The translations under genes were made by a program, and so were the position numbers. Below are positions 4,358 through 64,000 of a stretch of DNA of 64,000 nt, in pieces. The first letter of the stretch is position 1; every line of letters begins with the position of its first letter. Source of the stretch: an uncultured Gammaproteobacteria bacterium (lineage in GTDB: Bacteria > Patescibacteriota > Microgenomatia > 2-02-FULL-39-11); the NCBI GenBank assembly GCA_964520615.1, contig CAZFNL010000011.1:1123-65122 (forward strand). The letters are read 5' to 3'. The notes beneath the pieces are model-generated. The model had not been told where the DNA came from, did no database searches, and saw nothing but the letters and a program-made list of their open reading frames with translations.

Positions 4358-5389
4358 CTATTTGAAAGGCGTCACATCACAATTATTGTTTGACTCATTA
4401 CAACCAATCTTTATCCAATCATAAAATACTCTTGGATCTCCTTCTATGGCGTAGATTACTTTATCCACATCACTGGTACCGGCATGTTTTATAGTTTCAT
4501 TTGATTCGGCCAAAAATTCATTACTTTGGCAGGAAGATGACGCTGTAGGAATAATATTTCTGATATCATTTAAATTGACAAAGGCCGTCATATTTTTTAT
4601 CGTTATGCTTTTCAGTATATTTGCCGTGTCACTTGAGAATATTGACGTGAAGCCATGGCTCTTCTCCTTGTCTGTCGGACCTTTATACAATTCTTCAAGC
4701 GATGTCTTTACTACGTCATAAGTAGGAATGATTTTTCTGTCTGCCGGATAGACCAAACTACAATTATGGTTACCATATGGAGATAAATTCCTATTGGCAT
4801 AAAAGACTGTAACTTTATCGGATGATATTCTTTTCTGTCTAGTCACAGAATTGCAATCAATACTGTTTATCCTCCAGCTTGTTCCAGAGATTCTCAATCC
4901 TACAGGAAACATCTCTTCCTCACTTCCAAAAGTTTCTATTAAGCTCACATTAGCACTAGTATCTGAACGTGAGGAAAGTTTTGTACTTATATCTTCTGGT
5001 TTTTTATCAGAACAATAAAAGGGGTCATACGGGAAAGAGGTAGATGGCGGTGAAACAGCAGATGCGATTTTAAGCTTTAGCTCCTCGCTTAAATAATTGC
5101 TGTCCTTATATGAAGTCTGGTCGTTCTGCTTCATATACCAATTATAAAAATTATTTACGGCTTTCTCTGGACTGTCTGAAACAATCACTGATGAGTCTTC
5201 CTGCAAACAGTTTTCGGATGGCATAGGTCGGGAAGGATTACCATGTTTTATCCACATTCCATTTTGGCATATCCATGTATCCTCATCGCCTCCCGTCAGA
5301 AACCGCAAGGATAGTATTAAACCAGCACCCAACATAATAAGAACAAGAAGAAATAGAAATACCGATAATCCTTTATTTAGAAATTTCAT
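4358..5389 (-). CDS. Membrane-anchored secreted protein, hypothetical (Cys-containing extracellular domain)
   Basis: N-terminal signal anchor (LSVFLFLLVLIMLGAGLILSL) followed by a 300-aa extracellular region with several Cys. No confident family; possibly a GerMN-like fold. Confidence 0.45.
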   Translation of the reverse strand: MKFLNKGLSVFLFLLVLIMLGAGLILSLRFLTGGDEDTWICQNGMWIKHGNPSRPMPSENCLQEDSSVIVSDSPEKAVNNFYNWYMKQNDQTSYKDSNYLSEELKLKIASAVSPPSTSFPYDPFYCSDKKPEDISTKLSSRSDTSANVSLIETFGSEEEMFPVGLRISGTSWRINSIDCNSVTRQKRISSDKVTVFYANRNLSPYGNHNCSLVYPADRKIIPTYDVVKTSLEELYKGPTDKEKSHGFTSIFSSDTANILKSITIKNMTAFVNLNDIRNIIPTASSSCQSNEFLAESNETIKHAGTSDVDKVIYAIEGDPRVFYDWIKIGCNESNNNCDVTPFK

Positions 5390-6025: not shown

Positions 6026-6988
6026 TTAAAATCCTCCTACCACCGTTATCTCTCCTTTTATCGGCGGGTAAGGATCATACCCTTCAACGCTGAAGTGTTC
6101 AAAACGGAAATCATCTATCTTCCTAATTGAAGGATCAACTTTCATGACAGGAAAATGTCTGGGAGTGCGACTCAGTTGTTCTTTCACTTGGTCGAAATGG
6201 TTTTCATAAATATGTGCATCCCCAAATGTATGAATAAATTCTCCAGGTTTATATCCCGTCACCTGAGCCAACATTAGAGTAAGCAGGGCATAACTTGCAA
6301 TGTTAAAAGGCACTCCTAAAAACATGTCGGCGCTACGTTGGTAAAGAAGAAGAGAAAGTTTGTCACCGGTAATATTTATATGGTACATCGTGTGGCAGGG
6401 AGCAATTACCATGGATGCGGAGTGGCTGCCGGACATTTCATAAATACAGCCTGCATTCCAGGCAGAGATGACATAGTGTTTCTTTTGTGGATATTTTTTT
6501 ATCTTCTCTATTGCCCACCCCAACTGATCAACTGTCTTTTTGCCACCGGCTGGCCAGCGTCTCCACTGTACACCATAGACCGGCCCCAACTCTCCCCACT
6601 TAGCCAAGAATTTTTTATCTGACTGAATTTTTTGCAGAAACTCATCATAAGCCAATTTTTGCACCTTACCCTCATCAGTCGCCCACTGATATTTTTTATA
6701 AGCCCATTCATCCCAAATATGGACATTATTTTCCACCAGGTATTTTATATTTGAAGAACCGGAGAGAAACCAGATAAGTTCGTGAATTATTCCTCTAATG
6801 AATACTTTTTTTGTCGTCAAAAGAGGAAATCCTTTAGACAGGTCAAATCTTATCTGTCGTCCAAAAACGCTTTTTAGCTTGACACCTGTGGAATGGCTTA
6901 TTTTCCATTGCCCGTTATCCAAAATATCAGCAAGCAAGTTAAGATATTGGTATTCTGGATGGGATTTATCTTTTTGCGCCATAGACAA
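6026..6988 (-). CDS. thyA: Thymidylate synthase ThyA
   Basis: Active-site IAPCH motif and the YLNLLADIL N-terminus. A 320-aa ThyA-type protein, co-oriented with folA. Confidence 0.9.
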   Translation of the reverse strand: MSMAQKDKSHPEYQYLNLLADILDNGQWKISHSTGVKLKSVFGRQIRFDLSKGFPLLTTKKVFIRGIIHELIWFLSGSSNIKYLVENNVHIWDEWAYKKYQWATDEGKVQKLAYDEFLQKIQSDKKFLAKWGELGPVYGVQWRRWPAGGKKTVDQLGWAIEKIKKYPQKKHYVISAWNAGCIYEMSGSHSASMVIAPCHTMYHINITGDKLSLLLYQRSADMFLGVPFNIASYALLTLMLAQVTGYKPGEFIHTFGDAHIYENHFDQVKEQLSRTPRHFPVMKVDPSIRKIDDFRFEHFSVEGYDPYPPIKGEITVVGGF

Positions 6989-8364: not shown

Positions 8365-9103
8365 TTTTCAAAAACACTTCTTCAAGATCAGGCTCTTCCT
8401 TTTCTATTTTCAGTATATTTTTAGTCACTTCTGTCGGGTTACCCTTTGCAATAATTTTTCCTTTATGCAAAAGGACAAGATAATCACACATCTTTTCCAA
8501 TTCAGCCATATTATGAGAGGTATATATTATTGTCAAACTGCGTTCCTTCTGTATACTTTTCAAAATTTTCCTTGTCTTATCGGCAATATAAGGATCAAGA
8601 CTTGCAGTTGGCTCATCAAGAAAAAGCACTTCAGGATCGTTTATCAGTGACTTGCATAAATTTAATCTTGTTGCCTCACCCGAAGAAAGATTATTTACTC
8701 TCTGGTTTCTCAATTCCCATATCTCAAATCTTTCCATTAGTTCCCTTATCTTTTCTTTCAGAGAAGAAACATGATAAAGCTTGGCAAAGACCATGAGGTT
8801 TTCCCAGGCAGACAGCCTCCAATCCATATTGGTATAGCTGCTGGAAAAATTTATTTTCTGCAGTATCTCCTCAGTGTGTCCGGAAAAATCCAAACCGAAG
8901 ATTCTGATGGAACCGGACGAGGGAGTAATGAGGTTTAACAGCATTCTTATAGTTGTCGTCTTACCTGCACCATTTGGACCCAGTAGTCCCATAATTTCAC
9001 CTTCTTTTATAACAAACGATAATCTATCAACAGCGGTAAATCCGCCGGCTCGCCCATCGAATTTTTTAGTCAAGTCTTTTACTTCAACGATATTTTCTCC
9101 CAT
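8336..9103 (-). CDS. ABC transporter ATP-binding protein
   Basis: Walker A GPNGAGKTTT, signature LSSGE, Walker B LFLDEPT. Confidence 0.85.
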   Translation of the reverse strand: MGENIVEVKDLTKKFDGRAGGFTAVDRLSFVIKEGEIMGLLGPNGAGKTTTIRMLLNLITPSSGSIRIFGLDFSGHTEEILQKINFSSSYTNMDWRLSAWENLMVFAKLYHVSSLKEKIRELMERFEIWELRNQRVNNLSSGEATRLNLCKSLINDPEVLFLDEPTASLDPYIADKTRKILKSIQKERSLTIIYTSHNMAELEKMCDYLVLLHKGKIIAKGNPTEVTKNILKIEKEEPDLEEVFLKIAGGVHEIL

Positions 9104-58443: not shown

Positions 58444-59346
58444 TTGTTTCTCAACATTAGGATGCGAAGTAAAATGAAATCGTTGAAATTCTGGATACCA
58501 ACCTTAGTTGTTATATTTTTTTTAGGAAACTTTTCGTCTAAGGTATTCAAGTTACAAAAAAGATCACGGTTACCTATTTCCCCTAATATTCTCTACTTCA
58601 CTTCTCCAGTTACTTCGTTTTACGGTAAAGTCGAAAGAGTAAAAGGTAATATTATTACCGTAAGTCAGAAACTGACTATAGAAGAACCAACGCCTGTCTA
58701 TAACCCAAACCAACCGCATCCTCCCATTCCCACACCGATAAGGCAAATCCTTACTTACGAAATTGAAATTACAAAAGATACTATAATCAGCCGTCCTCCA
58801 TTAATGATAGATTATCTTTTTATCACCCCAACTCCAATACAACCTCCACGATTTTCTATATCTGACATTCAAGAGGGTCAAACAATAACTGTTTTAACCA
58901 ACAGTGACCTTCGGATCCTTCAGGGAAACAAAGTTGTCGCCGCATCAATTCAATTGCCAGCAATCAGCAATGCACAAAAGGGAACAATTGCTACGGTTGA
59001 AGGAAATATCATTACTATACAAGCTTATACGCCCACATCTCCAAATCCAATTGGGAATGTTGCGCCATTACAAGAACACCAATACTTTATAACTGTAACA
59101 AAGAATACAGAAATATCACGACTATCAAAACCATCTTCACCTGAACAACTCTTCTTGTCCGACTTGAAACCCGGAATGCAAATCATTGTCTATACTGATG
59201 AAGATGTGACAGTCACCGATCATCTCACCGCTCTTCGCATCGAACCGCTATTCTCAAATCCCACCCCGCTTCCTGAAACTTCATTCTCCCCTCAAGGTAC
59301 CCTCTCCGCAACATCAAGTGCCCACTACCCAACCGCAAATCCCTAG
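58444..59346 (+). CDS. Secreted/membrane-anchored hypothetical protein
   Basis: N-terminal TM, then a PT-rich ectodomain with internal repeats (GNIITV/GNIITI). Confidence 0.4.
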   Translation: MFLNIRMRSKMKSLKFWIPTLVVIFFLGNFSSKVFKLQKRSRLPISPNILYFTSPVTSFYGKVERVKGNIITVSQKLTIEEPTPVYNPNQPHPPIPTPIRQILTYEIEITKDTIISRPPLMIDYLFITPTPIQPPRFSISDIQEGQTITVLTNSDLRILQGNKVVAASIQLPAISNAQKGTIATVEGNIITIQAYTPTSPNPIGNVAPLQEHQYFITVTKNTEISRLSKPSSPEQLFLSDLKPGMQIIVYTDEDVTVTDHLTALRIEPLFSNPTPLPETSFSPQGTLSATSSAHYPTANP

Positions 59347-59408
59347 TGACCGCCAAACCAGGTGACCGTTCAAAGGTAGAAATTTATTTTCTCCCCGCCA
59401 CCACCACC

Positions 59409-59437
59409 CGCCCCGCTTGTCGCGGGGTTTTCTTTTT
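59409..59437 (+). terminator. Rho-independent terminator
   Basis: CGCCCCGC-TTGT-CGCGGGG followed by TTTTCTTTTT, 63 nt after the 59346 stop. Confidence 0.5.
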
Positions 59438-59645
59438 GCTTGCTTGCTGTCTTCCCAGTTTATCACACGCTCAAGGACTGCGGGCAGTTTGCAACTGTCC
59501 TCGCAAGTTGTGGTTCCCCTTCGTCCATCGACTTCGCTCAGGATGCTCAGGGTCACCATCAATCCTTGACTTCGTGTGCTGCCCTCCCATCAGCCAAGCA
59601 AGCAAAAGAGCTTGCAAATCATGGCAAGGAGGGAGGTGCCCCAAA

Positions 59646-59869
59646 TGGCACAAACGAAACGCTTCACGGCGAAGAAAGACCTCAAGCTCGACTGCGGTCA
59701 CACGATCAAAACCGGCGAGACCTTCGTCGTGACGAGCATCTACGCGTGCGAGAAAGATGCCGAGTGGCCGCTTGGCGTCCTCCGCGCCGCCTTTGAGAAA
59801 GCGCTTGCTAACCTGCTCAAGGAATTGAAGCCGGTGAGCGCCAAGGGCGGAGACGCAGAGCAAGAGTAA
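59646..59869 (+). CDS. Small hypothetical protein in the GC-rich block
   Basis: AGGAGGGAGG RBS 6 nt upstream of ATG 59646 (ORF track 59576-59869). 74 aa with GC3-rich codon usage, followed by a strong terminator. Confidence 0.4.
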
Positions 59870-59883
59870 TCGCTCTGCCTTCA

Positions 59884-59918
59884 GGGGCTAGGGAGAAATC
59901 TCTAGCCCCTATTTTTTT
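59884..59918 (+). terminator. Rho-independent terminator
   Basis: GGGGCTAGGGAGA-AATC-TCTAGCCCCT followed by ATTTTTTT. Confidence 0.7.
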
Positions 59919-60095
59919 GCTGCGCCTCTCCTTCCTTCCCTCCCATCCGCCCCCTCGTTTCCCCACCACTCTCCCTCCTCATTCATCCGCTCCTCGCTGC
60001 CTCTTAATCCCCACCTCTCGTCTACCTCTCTTTAGCTTCGCCATTCGTGCAAATCTCATCACTTCCACCACTGGTAATCTTCATCACCTATCTGT

Positions 60096-60237
60096 CACAC
60101 TGATTTCCCTCAGGCACTTTGGGCTGGCAAGTATTCGTAGCGGATTTCAGGCAAAAACGAGCGTGAAATAGGCAAAAGTGCCCTCCGAATACTTGCCAAT
60201 TTGACCACCGAAAAAGGGTCCCAGGGAAATCAGTGTG
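60096..60237. repeat. Nested inverted repeats (15-bp outer arms CACACTGATTTCCCT/AGGGAAATCAGTGTG; 12-bp inner arms GGCAAGTATTCG/CGAATACTTGCC)
   Basis: Read directly: outer arms at 60096-60110 and 60223-60237, inner arms at 60126-60137 and 60186-60197. Both are perfect and enclose a ~48-nt loop. Confidence 0.65.
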
Positions 60238-60329
60238 TCATTGACTCACACCATGATAAACCTTGACACAGATCCGATGGAAAACCGTCGAGGGACCACA
60301 AAAGAAACGTCTCTTTGAATTCTCCCAGG

Positions 60330-60360
60330 ATCGAACTCAATCGAACTCAATCGAACTCAT
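60330..60360. repeat. Three tandem 10-bp repeats (ATCGAACTCA), iteron-like
   Basis: GGATCGAACTCAATCGAACTCAATCGAACTCATCAGG. Flanked by GAATTCTCCC direct repeats at 60317 and 60423. Confidence 0.6.
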
Positions 60361-60980
60361 CAGGATGTGATTCTCAACCTGGCATCGCCACGCACCGGCA
60401 TCTGCGTGCGGAACAACCCTCGGAATTCTCCCCGCTTGTTTTCCTCTGCTCGGCGTCCCGCAACTACGTGCGGTCTCTCTCGCGTTTGTAATCTAAGCTG
60501 CAAATTCTTACCGCGAGTCTAACCCATCCAGAAAAAGCGTCAAGGGTAAAGTCGCTTTGCTCCCGGCTTCGCCGCCCTTGACGCTTTTTCTTGACCCGAT
60601 GGGTTTCTCTCCTCGCGGAATTTGCACCTTAACAAACGCAAAAGCGGATCGACCGCACCCAAGGCGGGACGACAACCCCTCGCAGATCGTCTTGCGGGGC
60701 AACAGCATTCCTACGGGAAGAGCGTTCCGCGTCTTAACAAGATGCCGGTGCCAAGAGAAGCCGATGCCACAATCTATCCAACCACGCATCGCCCTTGCGT
60801 TCTGCGTGGTCGGTTTTCACTTCACCTGAAAACGGAAAGGCAGTTAGGCACATTGGAAAGTGACTTGCGGACAAGCGCCCTGCAAACCTGCTTGACCAGA
60901 AAGTGAGTTCGTTCGTGTGTGTGTTGTTTTTTCTCATCAAGGGGAAGGGTGCGCCCCGAGAAAAGCACCCGGAGGTGAAT

Positions 60981-61157
60981 ATGTTCGTTCTGTGGCTACT
61001 GCACTTCTACAAACTGCGCTACGACGTGTTTGGAAACGCGCAAGCGTCTGTGAATCCGACCCGCGACGAATTGTTCAGTTTCTACGCGCTTCTTCTCACT
61101 CCTCAAGCCGTGATGACGGCGCTGTACGACTCCCAGGCGCGTCACATCTACTACTGA
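60981..61157 (+). CDS. Small hypothetical ORF with strong RBS
   Basis: GGAGGTG sits 4 nt upstream of ATG 60981 and the ORF is 58 aa. Coding status is uncertain. Confidence 0.3.
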   Translation: MFVLWLLHFYKLRYDVFGNAQASVNPTRDELFSFYALLLTPQAVMTALYDSQARHIYY

Positions 61158-61234
61158 AAAAAAGTTCGGGCTTGCAAGTGATCAGCCGTCACGCGCAAGC
61201 CCTAACATCCCAATCCAGTTGAAAGGACATTGAG

Positions 61235-61522
61235 ATGTCTAACGTGATTGTATCACTCATCGACCCATCCGGCAATCCCGATCCGAGCCTGGCGGCATAC
61301 ATGGCGGTGCAGGACTATGCCGCGATCCTCGCCGAGGAACTTGATCCTCGCGACGACCCTCACGCCGAGCACGGAGATTGGCAAACACCCAACGTACATG
61401 CTTGCTGCGACGGCAACATCGAAACGCAAATTACAAAGCGGCACGAACCAGGGACACCTTACATGTGTCCACACTGCCAGCAGCCCTACTGCGCTGACTG
61501 TGACATCGAGGTGCAGCGATGA
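61235..61522 (+). CDS. Small acidic Cys-rich hypothetical protein
   Basis: 95 aa with a C-terminal CCDG...MCPHCQQPYCADCD cluster (zinc-binding-like). The stop overlaps the next start (ATGA). Confidence 0.4.
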   Translation: MSNVIVSLIDPSGNPDPSLAAYMAVQDYAAILAEELDPRDDPHAEHGDWQTPNVHACCDGNIETQITKRHEPGTPYMCPHCQQPYCADCDIEVQR

Positions 61523-62493
61523 CCGCCCAGCAGATGAATATGTTTCCCCAAGGTGACGATTTGCCGCTCTTCAGCGGCACGCCCATCAAGGTGAGAATTC
61601 AGACCAGTGAGCCGCGCGAAGCCGAGAGCCAAGCGCGGCTTTCAATTTGTCCACTGTGCCAGGACACCGGCAAGGTCATCATTCAGCGCAAGCGAAGCGA
61701 GCCAGTGTTTTGCACGTGCGAAGCAGGACAAAGTGCGAAAGCAAAAGCACGGTTGGAACAACTCCCAGACTCCAAGCGTGTTAAGCGTTTACGCGAGATG
61801 TACGCCGAGCCAAGGGACGACACTGGACAGGTGCTGCGCGAGGCAATGGTGTGGGACAATCCCAAGGCGCGACTGGCTAGTATCGGTCCGCAAGCGTTGA
61901 CGCTCATCGAACTCTTGTCCGTGATTCTGGGCACGGAAGGACAGCCCGAGGTGGGGGCAAGAGTGCTTGCAGAGTGCAAGACTATCGCAGGTATTCGTAC
62001 CCGTTCCATCGCGGAATTGGTGACGAGCACAAAGCTGACACTGACGCGAGCCAAGCGTCTCGCCGCTGCGCTCGAACTGGGACGGCGAGCACTTCAGTGC
62101 AGTGAAGAGCGTCCTTACATCAAGTCTCCCGCCGATGCTGCTCAGCTTCTAGCCGAGATGGGCACACTTGACCAGGAGCAGATGCGGGTGCTGGCACTTG
62201 ACACCAAGAACCGCGTTATAGAGATCGTGACCGTCTATCAAGGAAGCGTGCACACAACAGTCATTCGCGTGTGTGAGCTAATGAAAGCAGCAATCCGCGT
62301 CAATGCAACCTCGATCATCGTTGCCCACTGTCATCCCTCCGGCGATCCGACTCCAAGTCCTGAAGACGTGGCGGTCACAACGGAGATTGTCAAAGCGGCA
62401 AAAATCCTTGACCTCGACTGTCTCGACCATCTGGTCATCGGCAGTTCGGGCAAGTTCGTCAGCTTGAAGGAAAGGGGGCTTGGATTCTCATGA
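61519..62493 (+). CDS. RadC-like JAB/MPN-domain protein with N-terminal zinc-ribbon extension
   Basis: C-terminal JAMM-like HCHPSGDPTPSPED motif preceded by a helix-hairpin-helix region (RadC/UPF0758 architecture). The first ~100 aa carry CPLCQDTGK...FCTCEAG. Confidence 0.8.
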   Translation: MTAQQMNMFPQGDDLPLFSGTPIKVRIQTSEPREAESQARLSICPLCQDTGKVIIQRKRSEPVFCTCEAGQSAKAKARLEQLPDSKRVKRLREMYAEPRDDTGQVLREAMVWDNPKARLASIGPQALTLIELLSVILGTEGQPEVGARVLAECKTIAGIRTRSIAELVTSTKLTLTRAKRLAAALELGRRALQCSEERPYIKSPADAAQLLAEMGTLDQEQMRVLALDTKNRVIEIVTVYQGSVHTTVIRVCELMKAAIRVNATSIIVAHCHPSGDPTPSPEDVAVTTEIVKAAKILDLDCLDHLVIGSSGKFVSLKERGLGFS

Positions 62494-63203
62494 TCACCCA
62501 AACTACCCCCGCCCAGCGCGAAGAACGCAAGCGCAAGCTGCAAACCCTCTCACAAGCTGAATATCAGAACTTGCGGAACCTCGTGCACTACATCGTGCCC
62601 CAAAAGTTCTGCGACCCCGACGATGCGCTCAGTCACGGTCTTTTGATCGCGATGGAAAAGTACGACGGACACGGCGAACTCAAGACGTACGTCATGCGCT
62701 GCGCCTATCTCTACTCGCTGCAGCAGGTCAAAAAGACCCGACTCAATATCACCTTCACCGACCTGCAAAACGAATCGGATTTCGAGGAATATTTGGACGA
62801 AGTACTTCCCTACCTCGAAGACCCGCGATACGTCGAAGCCGTCGACGAGTTATTCATTAGGCGCATCCATGAAGTGCTCGACAGCATGAGGAACTGGCGT
62901 TTCCGTCACACCACCCAGGAAGCCATCGCTGACGCTCACACGATCCTGGAGCTCTTGCGTGAGAACGCCAACCTGGGAAAAGGGATCGGTGTGGACGAAT
63001 ACGAAGACGGACCGCTCACGGCGTTCAAACGCGGCAAACCCCGTGTCGGACGCCCCATGCACAATACCAAGATCGTCCGCAAGAACATCGTCGATCATCT
63101 CACCGACGAGCTGCACACTACCAAGCAGGACATCAGCAGCGCATACAAGGCGCTGCGTCTCAGCACCCGACAGGCGCTCAATGAAGGATGGCTTCCGACA
63201 TGA
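62490..63203 (+). CDS. Hypothetical protein, weak sigma-70 region-2/region-4-like features
   Basis: DALSHGLLIAMEKYDGHGELKTYVMRCAYLYSL resembles sigma region 2. C-terminal ISSAYKALRLSTRQAL is HTH-like. Start overlaps the upstream stop. Confidence 0.3.
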   Translation: MITQTTPAQREERKRKLQTLSQAEYQNLRNLVHYIVPQKFCDPDDALSHGLLIAMEKYDGHGELKTYVMRCAYLYSLQQVKKTRLNITFTDLQNESDFEEYLDEVLPYLEDPRYVEAVDELFIRRIHEVLDSMRNWRFRHTTQEAIADAHTILELLRENANLGKGIGVDEYEDGPLTAFKRGKPRVGRPMHNTKIVRKNIVDHLTDELHTTKQDISSAYKALRLSTRQALNEGWLPT

Positions 63204-63469
63204 CCATCTATCTTCTCCACATTCAGCCCTGCTATAAGCACGCACGGCACTACCTGGGCATCACGAAAGATCTCGACGCGCGGTTGCAGCTTCATCGCGA
63301 AGGGAGAGCCGCACGACTGACCCAGGTGTGTGTCGAGAGTGGGCGTGTGTTACAACTGGTTCGAACGTGGGAAGGCAGTCGCGACGACGAACGACGATTG
63401 AAGAATCAAAAGAACTCGCCACGGCTGTGTCCTCTGTGTAATCCCAAGTTGAAAGGAGTCGAATGCTAG
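63188..63469 (+). CDS. Stand-alone GIY-YIG nuclease-domain protein
   Basis: IYLLHIQPCYKHARHYLGITKDLDARLQLHREG, with GIY-YIG-like Y...Y(L)G, Arg and Glu positions. 93 aa. Confidence 0.65.
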   Translation: MASDMTIYLLHIQPCYKHARHYLGITKDLDARLQLHREGRAARLTQVCVESGRVLQLVRTWEGSRDDERRLKNQKNSPRLCPLCNPKLKGVEC

Positions 63470-63789
63470 TTGACCAACCAAGTCCGCAACAATACTTGAA
63501 GGTTATCTTGTGCGAAGAAATTGGGCTGTCCGAGAAATCGGCAGCCCGTCTCATTCAAGAGTACGGTGAGCTTGCAGTGCAGCGTCACGCGATGTATTGC
63601 CTCTGGATGATGAGCCAGGGTAAAGTGCACGTTCCGCCGGCGTGGTTGACCGCATCTTTGAAAGGCGATTGGCGCGCACCGTACGGAATGCCAAGCGATT
63701 GGTTGCCGACGGTGCTGCATTTCCGTGTCGACGAGAACACGTTCGTGGAGTTCACGCGTGAGGTGCGTGACGAGAAAAAGGCAACTTGA
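63463..63789 (+). CDS. Hypothetical protein (last gene of the overlapping GC-rich operon)
   Basis: 108 aa. Start overlaps the upstream stop and the gene is followed by a terminator. Confidence 0.35.
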   Translation: MLVDQPSPQQYLKVILCEEIGLSEKSAARLIQEYGELAVQRHAMYCLWMMSQGKVHVPPAWLTASLKGDWRAPYGMPSDWLPTVLHFRVDENTFVEFTREVRDEKKAT

Positions 63790-63796
63790 ACACCGA

Positions 63797-63838
63797 AGCC
63801 CCGGAAGCAGCGATGCTTCTGGGGCTATTTTTATTTTG
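63797..63838 (+). terminator. Rho-independent terminator
   Basis: GCCCCGGAAGC-AGCGAT-GCTTCTGGGGC followed by TATTTTTATTTT. Confidence 0.6.
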
Positions 63839-64000
63839 CCACTTTTGCCTCCTCCACTTCTTGGCACACCTCCTATTGACTCCGCAGTTCCCACCTGATA
63901 ATCTACCTTCATGATTACCAAAAAGGATGTGGAAGAAACAGTCAACACCGGAATCGCCGGATTACGCAAAGAATTCAAGGAAGAAATGTCGTCGATGCGC

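Follow-up and report, generated by a model that had tools for sequence, protein, structure and literature searches.

A conserved giant hairpin upstream of a RadC operon as a possible single-strand promoter with a structured leader RNA

Overview of the locus

The DNA analysed here, called the window throughout, is a 64,000-nt stretch of contig CAZFNL010000011.1. Near its right-hand end, an intrinsic terminator is followed by a non-coding region and then by an operon that encodes several small proteins and a RadC-like JAB protein. This paper concerns the 3′ part of the non-coding region, a conserved core at 60367-60980 that lies upstream of the same small open reading frame (ORF)/RadC operon in six other loci. 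The core can fold into one very large hairpin with promoter-like boxes in its stem, and its possible role is that of a single-strand promoter related in design to Frpo, a hairpin used as a promoter in the transferred strand of conjugative plasmids (PMC9849209, PMC11541004). The features of the core and the operon are as follows, in window coordinates:

60380-60769, minus strand (proposed functional form: the template strand as single-stranded DNA, ssDNA): giant imperfect hairpin of ~400 nt, with a left (L) arm at 60380-60471, an apical part at 60472-60650 and a right (R) arm at 60651-60769
60472-60650, minus strand: apical hairpin ('hairpin 2') of 179 nt, which includes AAAAAGCGTCAAGGG/CCCTTGACGCTTTTT
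60527-60546/60575-60594: long-loop inverted repeat AAAAAGCGTCAAGGG/CCCTTGACGCTTTTT, the tip of the larger hairpin
60538-60543, minus strand: −35-like box TTGACG, within the fully paired, invariant stem segment GTCAAGGG/CCCTTGAC
60516-60521, minus strand: −10-like box TAGACT, 16 nt from the −35 box, with TAGA in an internal loop
60620-60980, plus strand: candidate 5′ leader RNA, with a predicted start near 60620
~60630-60927, plus strand: locally folded domain, closed by pairing of UUAACAAACGC with GUGUGUGUGUUGUU
60781-60810, plus strand: hairpin CCACGCATCGC..GCGTTCTGCGTGG, nearly invariant, with GGTTTT after it in five of seven loci
60981-61157, plus strand: 58-aa gene that opens the operon, ribosome-binding site GGAGGTG
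61235-63789, plus strand: rest of the operon, encoding a 95-aa Cys-rich protein, the RadC-like JAB protein (61519-62493), a 237-aa protein, a 93-aa GIY-YIG-like protein and a 108-aa protein
63797-63826, plus strand: operon terminator

The six other loci (L001, L018, L002, L017, L003 and L026), all metagenomic, were reached via homologues of the RadC protein. Together with the window they form the set of seven used for co-variation; six full-length loci were used for folds of the whole hairpin. In the closest relative, L001, which comes from a Dehalococcoidia metagenome-assembled genome, the sequence corresponding to 60367-60980 is ~92% identical to that of the window, above the identity of the adjacent coding DNA. 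The two loci share the terminator and then everything from ~60340 on. The core can also be aligned in the remaining five loci, despite RadC proteins that are only 59–88% identical.

The original prediction described 59920-61230 as non-coding, highly structured DNA at the start of a GC-rich block. Repeat searches, folding and composition analysis recover every feature that it listed, at the positions it gave. The non-coding assignment holds for 59920-60980 and fails for 60981-61157, which is a genuine gene for the 58-aa protein. The region is indeed strongly structured and placed at the start of a GC-rich, foreign block; the structure is conserved in part of the region only.

The conserved core folds into a giant co-varying hairpin

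In all six full-length loci the minimum-energy fold is a single extended hairpin. The long-loop inverted repeat predicted at 60531-60598 is the apex of the 179-nt apical hairpin, which is itself the upper half of the ~400-nt structure. Lack of conservation of the inverted repeats in relatives, named in the original prediction as evidence against it, is found for a set of nested repeats further upstream (hairpin 1, described below) and not for the 60531-60598 repeat.

The apical hairpin has a folding energy of −79.7 kcal/mol as RNA (z = −9.5) and a z-score of −11.3 as minus-strand DNA. A structural alignment of the seven sequences has 95% of its cells paired and contains 12 pairs changed on both sides, a number reached by 0 of 500 shuffles; slid controls give only 39–50% paired cells. 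The apical loop is variable in length and sequence and contains no conserved nick-like motif. Below the apical hairpin, the arms divide the loci into two sequence types, with just ~62% identity between them. Cognate L:R arm duplexes score −86 to −115 kcal/mol, as against −52 to −79 kcal/mol for arms combined across the two types, and the flanking arms therefore co-evolve. One copy of the hairpin was found in each locus; a search with covariance model R1 returned no extra copies.

A further conserved hairpin, CGCTTGCTTTGYGCC...GCGACGCAAGCGG, occurs upstream of the giant hairpin in four relatives (L018 88-160; L002 ~5060-5145; L017 ~6715-6800; L003 ~8645-8730) and is absent from the window and L001. 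Its minus strand folds slightly better in all four.

Promoter-like boxes are conserved on one arm of the hairpin

Read on the minus strand, the 5′ arm of the apical hairpin is CCC-TTGACG-16 nt-TAGACT (60543-60516), an arrangement that a consensus scan picked up independently. The −35 box reads TTGAC(G/A/T) in six of the seven loci. TAGACT is present at the −10 position in six as well, the seventh (L001) having TATGCT, and a TGn extended −10 element is found in four. Base pairs neighbouring the invariant −35 segment co-vary. The TAGA of the −10 box lies in a 4 × 6 internal loop, whose opposite strand (60606-60611) is TCTCTC in the window. Across the seven loci this opposite side reads TCTCTC, TTACTT, GGTCGT, GGGCGT, GGCCGT, GAACGT and ACCCGC, and is never complementary to the box; the loop is conserved on one side only.

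In the minus-strand hairpin the boxes lie on the 3′ arm, and the box arm is the non-template strand. A single-strand promoter is expected to have its −35 and −10 elements rebuilt in the stem, on the arm that is non-template for the downstream genes, and this is the arrangement found. Read in duplex DNA, these boxes are directed to the left, into sequence that is neither conserved nor coding. The match in the consensus scan and the conserved boxes would be accounted for by a standard double-strand promoter that fires left from 60543-60516, with the palindrome serving as an operator or cruciform for a regulator and the product being a divergent or antisense transcript. We regard this as very unlikely. 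Beyond 60340 the sequence is not conserved, and frameshifting indels relative to L001 exclude an ORF; a minus-strand ORF under the hairpin, called as a gene in L001, was rejected because of these indels. A leftward promoter also leaves unexplained the 60+ co-varying base pairs on either side and the loss of only the −10 box from the mirror-image arm.

Strand preference and the single-strand promoter screen

The minus strand, which is the operon template, folds better than the plus strand in all six loci. With DNA parameters, its advantage is 2.6–7.9 kcal/mol for the apical hairpin and 4–16 kcal/mol for the whole hairpin (1–22 kcal/mol with RNA parameters). As a positive control, the true Frpo2 and Frpo1 of the F plasmid were located from a published construct sequence, and the transferred strand is favoured there by 5.5 and 8.4 kcal/mol, respectively. 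A hairpin upstream of the F antirestriction gene was dropped as an Frpo control, being neither Frpo1 nor Frpo2. On the model-fitted alignment, wobble cells number 34 for the minus strand and 2 for the plus strand, in an alignment that is biased toward its own strand. Taken with the points weighed below, these models make a preference for the minus strand moderately supported.

A published homology-independent screen for single-strand promoters (PMC12672017) selects 300-nt windows whose DNA fold lies below −75 kcal/mol and whose stem contains promoter boxes. Within 58–64 kb, 60340-60779 is the only segment that passes. The minimum, −86.5 kcal/mol, is reached at 60400-60699 on the minus strand, against a background for 58–64 kb with a mean of −44 kcal/mol and a standard deviation of 13.

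The evidence from the hairpin, the boxes and the strand preference would also fit a single-strand origin (sso/ssi), in which RNA polymerase at the hairpin produces only a short primer for complementary-strand synthesis, on an incoming or rolling-circle single strand, and the operon has its own conventional promoter. Frpo was first described in both roles: Masai and Arai reportedly presented it in 1997, in the title of their paper, as serving transcription and primer synthesis. We nevertheless consider an origin function on its own improbable. No CS-6 motif (TAGCGT/A) occurs on either strand in any of the seven loci, and the apical loop is not conserved. The hairpin always stands directly upstream of the same operon and points into it, and 60650-60980 contains no good double-strand promoter. 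The two roles are compatible and not mutually exclusive.

A candidate leader RNA on the plus strand

Past the predicted start, it is the plus strand of the leader that shows RNA-type features. For 60651-60985 it is the plus strand that folds better, in 5–6 of the six loci. In the domain at 60630-60927 (alignment A8), 93% of cells are paired and both sides differ in 13 pairs, a number that 1 of 500 shuffles reaches; its local fold contains shifting G·U pairs. L018 has C(UCCG)G in place of the C(UACG)G tetraloop found at ~60711-60716. Loops of the UNCG type stabilise RNA and not DNA, an argument that has been used for the STAXI motif (PMC2864571).

The closing helix of this domain joins two of the most conserved blocks of the leader, UUAACAAACGC and GUGUGUGUGUUGUU. 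In the DNA hairpin, UUAACAAACGC pairs with the 5′ arm as well, and its near-invariance would be explained by this double constraint if both structures are used. Further downstream, the nearly invariant hairpin at 60781-60810 may be an attenuator.

These RNA-type features also bear on the main rival explanation, in which the whole core is a plus-strand structured RNA, either a long cis-regulatory 5′ leader or a non-coding RNA (ncRNA) of ~600 nt, transcribed from a promoter to the left of 60370 that escaped recognition, and the boxes are coincidental. Retention of the UNCG tetraloop as UACG or UCCG, the plus-strand G·U pairs and co-variation in 60630-60927, and the better plus-strand folding of the 3′ part are all consistent with this explanation. 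The context is likewise similar to that of the radC and STAXI candidate motifs, which adjoin radC, ssb and antirestriction genes (PMC2864571). We judge it unlikely for the core as a whole. In every one of the six loci the minus strand gives the better fold of the hairpin half, and an internal loop with a single conserved side that reads TAGACT would be left without explanation. No plus-strand promoter match is found between the terminator and 60370, an interval for which L001 has only ~70 nt, and a near-perfect RNA duplex of 400 nt would be a target for RNase III. Rfam, with its radC and STAXI families included, has no match at the gathering score over the whole window and nothing relevant at E ≤ 10 over 59000-64000; this result also speaks against a known structured ncRNA, the original prediction having listed a structured ncRNA among its alternatives.

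A possible single-strand promoter for an establishment operon

The following observations lead us to read the hairpin as a single-strand promoter: it co-varies, its boxes are conserved, the loop at the −10 box is conserved on one side, the template strand folds better, the hairpin is co-oriented with the operon, and the context is that of a mobile element, a relaxase being present in a relative. In this model, to which we give tentative preference at slightly less than even confidence, the conserved core at ~60380-60980 would represent a new class of Frpo-like single-strand promoter that fires into the RadC operon and is followed by a structured RNA leader. The core would then act as the start signal for an 'establishment' operon carried by an integrative mobilizable or conjugative element, an assignment that we hold just as provisionally. 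The original prediction had pointed out that the position of the region fits the idea of a leading region, and this idea fits best of those it raised: the hairpin has Frpo-type anatomy and is directed toward the RadC operon, and genes for a MOBC relaxase and a serine recombinase are present in the closest relative.

The proposed sequence of events begins with entry of the element into a recipient as ssDNA, with the minus strand as the transferred strand. The hairpin would fold and mimic duplex promoter DNA, and host RNA polymerase would bind the non-template arm, where TTGACG is paired and TAGACT already open. Transcription would proceed down the template arm from a start near 60620 and rightwards into the operon. 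The transcript would contain, in order, the structured leader of ~300 nt, the 58-aa and 95-aa ORFs, and the coding sequences for RadC and the 237-aa, GIY-YIG-like and 108-aa proteins. Once the complementary strand is synthesised, the hairpin would be lost, the boxes would point left, away from the operon, and expression would stop. The same signal could also provide a primer for complementary-strand synthesis, as has been shown for Frpo, such that sso-like and promoter roles may coexist.

Several observations weigh against this model. Plain arm-against-arm alignment gives 19 wobble cells for each strand, with no strand bias, and the intersection of the plus- and minus-strand folds gives only 0 against 3. 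The strand preference therefore rests mainly on the energies and the model-fitted alignment. The co-variation statistics are drawn from seven sequences in about three lineages, too few for rigour. One locus, L026, has TTGAG at the −35 box, and the box spacing of 15–16 nt is below the 17-nt optimum. The box motif by itself is common, with 11 matches in the window where 8.2 are expected; the weight of the box argument is in the conservation, the position and the loop conserved on one side, not in the motif itself. About 150 nt of stem separate the predicted start from the base of the hairpin, far more than in Frpo. The identity of the transferred strand is taken from gene orientation; the window ends before any relaxase gene, and a relaxase is present in only one of the seven loci (L001). 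The orientation in L001, where the MOBC relaxase operon is co-directional with the RadC operon, as in F, is consistent with placement in a leading region.

More broadly, the core could be a two-part signal of Chloroflexota-related mobile elements, with a promoter hairpin of ~400 nt that exists only in ssDNA and an R arm that refolds in the transcript into a structured leader RNA of ~300 nt controlling the RadC-type establishment operon. We put this forward as a possibility about which we remain doubtful. If correct, such a signal would be the first class of single-strand promoter outside the Proteobacteria, and indirect evidence for conjugative ssDNA transfer in a poorly studied, Chloroflexota-related group. 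Single-strand promoters set which genes a conjugative element expresses during its first minutes in a new host, typically those for anti-defence and establishment. All that have been characterised to date are from enterobacterial plasmids. Searches for them have mostly relied on sequence similarity to five known examples, and homology-independent classes were reported only in 2025 (PMC12672017). A much larger and sequence-unrelated example in a Dehalococcoidia-linked integrative element would demonstrate wide use of the strategy. Such an example would also supply a search template, in the form of a giant hairpin that co-varies and holds a −10 box in a loop with one conserved side, and would mark the RadC, 58-aa, 95-aa and GIY-YIG genes as candidates for early-establishment functions.

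Genomic setting and the RadC operon

The GC content of the window is ~40% up to ~59.3 kb and 52–56% from there on, with a jump from 40% to 54% at the edge of the block. Genes to the left of this boundary are chromosomal and include those for MurJ, an LCP transferase, PcrA and a Nif3-like protein. The last low-GC gene (58444-59346, plus strand) encodes a 300-aa Pro/Thr-rich protein without a family match. The rise in GC content begins within its 3′ end, and the junction of the element may accordingly be at or just past the stop codon. A perfect 13-nt inverted repeat, TTTTGCTTGCTTG (59434-59446)/CAAGCAAGCAAAA (59595-59607), brackets the interval from the GC boundary to the small gene that precedes the terminator and could relate to an element end or attachment site. 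No tRNA or tmRNA integration target was found.

Within the operon, the 58-aa protein is conserved while its DNA diverges (homologue P0121, 76% identical). The RadC-like protein matches Pfam RadC with an E-value of 2.1e-36, and the GIY-YIG-like protein scores 2.8e-4, just under the family cut-off. The 95-aa protein (61235-61522) has a C-terminal CxxC...CxxC pattern and a weak match to Pfam C1_4, and the RadC protein carries an N-terminal extension of ~110 aa (within 61519-61800) with CPLC...CTC, which is missing from typical RadC proteins of 230 aa. Both may bind zinc or DNA. Just past the operon terminator, 63876-63904 (plus strand) contains a sigma-70-like promoter, with TTGACT, a 17-nt spacer ending in TG, and ATAATC; the ordinary promoters of the element are therefore suggested to follow the TTGACA/TATAAT consensus.

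The order of the operon genes is common to L001, L002, L003, L017, L018 and L021. Upstream of the operon, L001 encodes a 555-aa protein, a PF13814 protein (6.7e-28), an HTH_17 protein and a large serine recombinase, all co-directional with the RadC operon; PF13814 is the MOBC relaxase family (PMC5357655). In other loci the module is found next to a CHAP-domain protein, a type I restriction-modification system or NB-ARC/TPR proteins, and the genes beyond it in L003 look chromosomal. The setting is therefore taken to be the edge of an integrative mobilizable or conjugative element. Three independent metagenome contigs (L021 1-300, L023 1-292 and L024 1-228) begin just downstream of the non-coding region; contig breaks would be expected there if assemblers stop at a long hairpin or at sequence shared by several elements.

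DNA searches of the plasmid and phage collections found no similarity, and a scan of the genome collection with the RadC protein returned no match. A scan with a conserved 26-nt pattern gave the L001 contig as its only match. Scans of the viral collection found nothing, or a single chance match inside a 622-aa ORF. PHROGs matches are confined to the RadC/JAB domain, a peptidase-like protein and families of unknown function.

Features upstream of the conserved core

The remaining features of the non-coding region lie largely between the terminator and the core:

59883-59910 plus a T run to 59918, plus strand: intrinsic terminator of the upstream small gene (59645-59869), 12-bp stem
59920-60060, plus strand: pyrimidine-rich (CT) tract, 81–85% C+T over 59900-60050, specific to the window
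60093-60240, no strand: 'hairpin 1', nested inverted repeats 60093-60120/60213-60240 and 60125-60147/60176-60198
60330-60359, plus strand: three exact tandem ATCGAACTCA decamers, a local expansion
60317 and 60423: two copies of the direct repeat GAATTCTCCC, at chance level

The terminator forms the left limit of the non-coding region and is 77% identical to a terminator at L001 8716-8779. A sub-threshold Rfam match to the Bradyrhizobiaceae small RNA family BjrC68 at 59836-59918 (plus strand; 33.9 bits, cut-off 39) overlaps the gene end and the terminator and most likely reflects a likeness between terminator hairpins only.

In place of 59920-60340 (~420 nt in the window) L001 has only ~45 nt, so the CT tract and hairpin 1 are lineage-specific. 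The tract is missing from L001, L002, L017 and L003. Its candidacy as a common feature was rejected, since it occurs in only two of six loci and at differing positions. L018 has a comparable tract inside the hairpin loop, an insertion of ~80% pyrimidine at ~450-580 within the apical loop that echoes the tract upstream of the hairpins in the window.

The nested repeats of hairpin 1 contain perfect cores of 15 bp and 12–13 bp and fold with −64.9 kcal/mol (z = −6.75). Its two strands fold alike (−41.0 kcal/mol for plus, −39.9 kcal/mol for minus). With neither boxes nor strand bias, it was rejected as a second promoter hairpin. It was also rejected as a diverged copy of the conserved hairpin, as covariance model R1 gives no match there, and no relative of it was found when the viral contig collection was scanned.

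At the site of the decamers, L001 has a single related unit, GATCGAAAGCA, which matches at 8 of 10 positions, and the other loci have none. By sequence, the triplet is an expansion of a unit present once in L001 and not a set of conserved iterons. The ATCGAACTCA decamer (60330-60359) is complementary at 8–9 of 10 positions to the conserved leader segment TGAGTTCGTTCGTG (60904-60917), so that long-range pairing is possible, in the lineage of the window only. The GAATTCTCCC repeats were rejected as functional, being at chance level; a local alignment of the variable part with the conserved part does not outscore shuffles.

These upstream repeats had prompted the proposal of a transfer or replication origin, with oriT hairpins and oriV iterons. 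The region is non-coding and rich in inverted repeats, and it belongs to a mobile element with a relaxase in a relative. We find this reading highly improbable, the least supported of those considered. The decamers lack conservation in the relatives and no rep gene was seen, a Pfam search of the operon having detected no rep domain, which argues against iterons of an oriV. An oriT, which usually has a conserved inverted repeat and nick site close to the relaxase gene, is improbable here. The nested hairpins likened to one are absent from L001 and matched nothing else, and the conserved hairpin has a variable apical loop that lacks a conserved nick-like motif. In L001, moreover, the conserved region is 5.4 kb from the relaxase gene. 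A phage attP/cos region, also proposed originally, finds no counterpart in phage-family matches, and the arm spacing of 28–90 nt does not fit a recombinase core site.

The sequence comparisons give no sign of function for the CT tract, hairpin 1 and the decamer triplet, which are lineage-specific and lie outside the conserved device. The most conspicuous repeats of the region, its nested perfect hairpins and tandem decamers, are those without conservation, and this calls for caution.

Comparison with known systems

The closest parallels are the Frpo/ssi hairpins of IncF and IncI1 plasmids (class 1, PMC12672017). There, too, a long imperfect hairpin with −35 and −10 boxes rebuilt in its stem occupies a long intergenic region, directly followed by early genes of the same orientation, and the template or transferred strand folds better (by 5.5–8.4 kcal/mol in F, 4–16 kcal/mol here). 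The downstream genes are again typical of mobile-element establishment. The element described here differs in having no sequence similarity to Frpo/ssi: the best E-value, from 15–16-nt matches to F Frpo1, F Frpo2 and ColIb-P9 Frpo1, is 0.05, compared with a published threshold of E ≤ 1e-6. Its hairpin is ~400 nt long, whereas that of Frpo is ~150–170 nt and the known classes are ~150–240 nt. Its boxes are ~150 nt from the hairpin base, and the hairpin is followed by a conserved leader of ~300 nt instead of being close to the gene. It is found as one copy per locus, unlike the several copies of F, and in an integrative element related to a Dehalococcoidia genome rather than an enterobacterial plasmid.

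The class 2 and class 3 single-strand promoters of pESBL (upstream of klcA/ardA and M.EcoGIX; PMC12672017) are large stem-loops with −35/−10 boxes upstream of leading-region operons and were defined without homology. The hairpin described here falls within the energy limit used for these classes, with unrelated sequence. Transcription starts of the published class 2/3 promoters were confirmed by 5′ rapid amplification of cDNA ends, whereas the start at 60620 is predicted. The F plasmid contains a 240-nt hairpin upstream of a klcA-like antirestriction gene (L027 4481-4719; NC_002483 56480-56718), with the transferred strand favoured by 6.6 kcal/mol. We read in it TTGCAT-15-TAAGAT, with TAA in a 3 × 3 internal loop and the same geometry as the TAGA loop; this is our own reading and not an annotation from the paper. 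It is neither Frpo1 nor Frpo2 and probably corresponds, in F, to the pESBL 'class 2' promoter.

Two further groups share part of this design. In the radC (Rfam RF01754) and STAXI motifs (Weinberg et al. 2010, PMC2864571), too, a conserved non-coding structure lies beside radC, ssb, antirestriction or integrase genes, and a role in ssDNA was raised for STAXI by its authors. Those motifs are small and proteobacterial, in contrast to the 400-nt hairpin and leader described here, which give no covariance-model match to them even at E ≤ 10. The ssoA-type origins of rolling-circle plasmids and integrative and conjugative elements similarly use an orientation-specific ssDNA hairpin that RNA polymerase reads as a promoter; unlike these, the present hairpin lacks a CS-6 motif and a conserved loop, has a far greater length and keeps a fixed place upstream of an operon. 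By sequence the element is a member of none of these groups, but as modelled it works like Frpo/ssi and the class 2/3 promoters.

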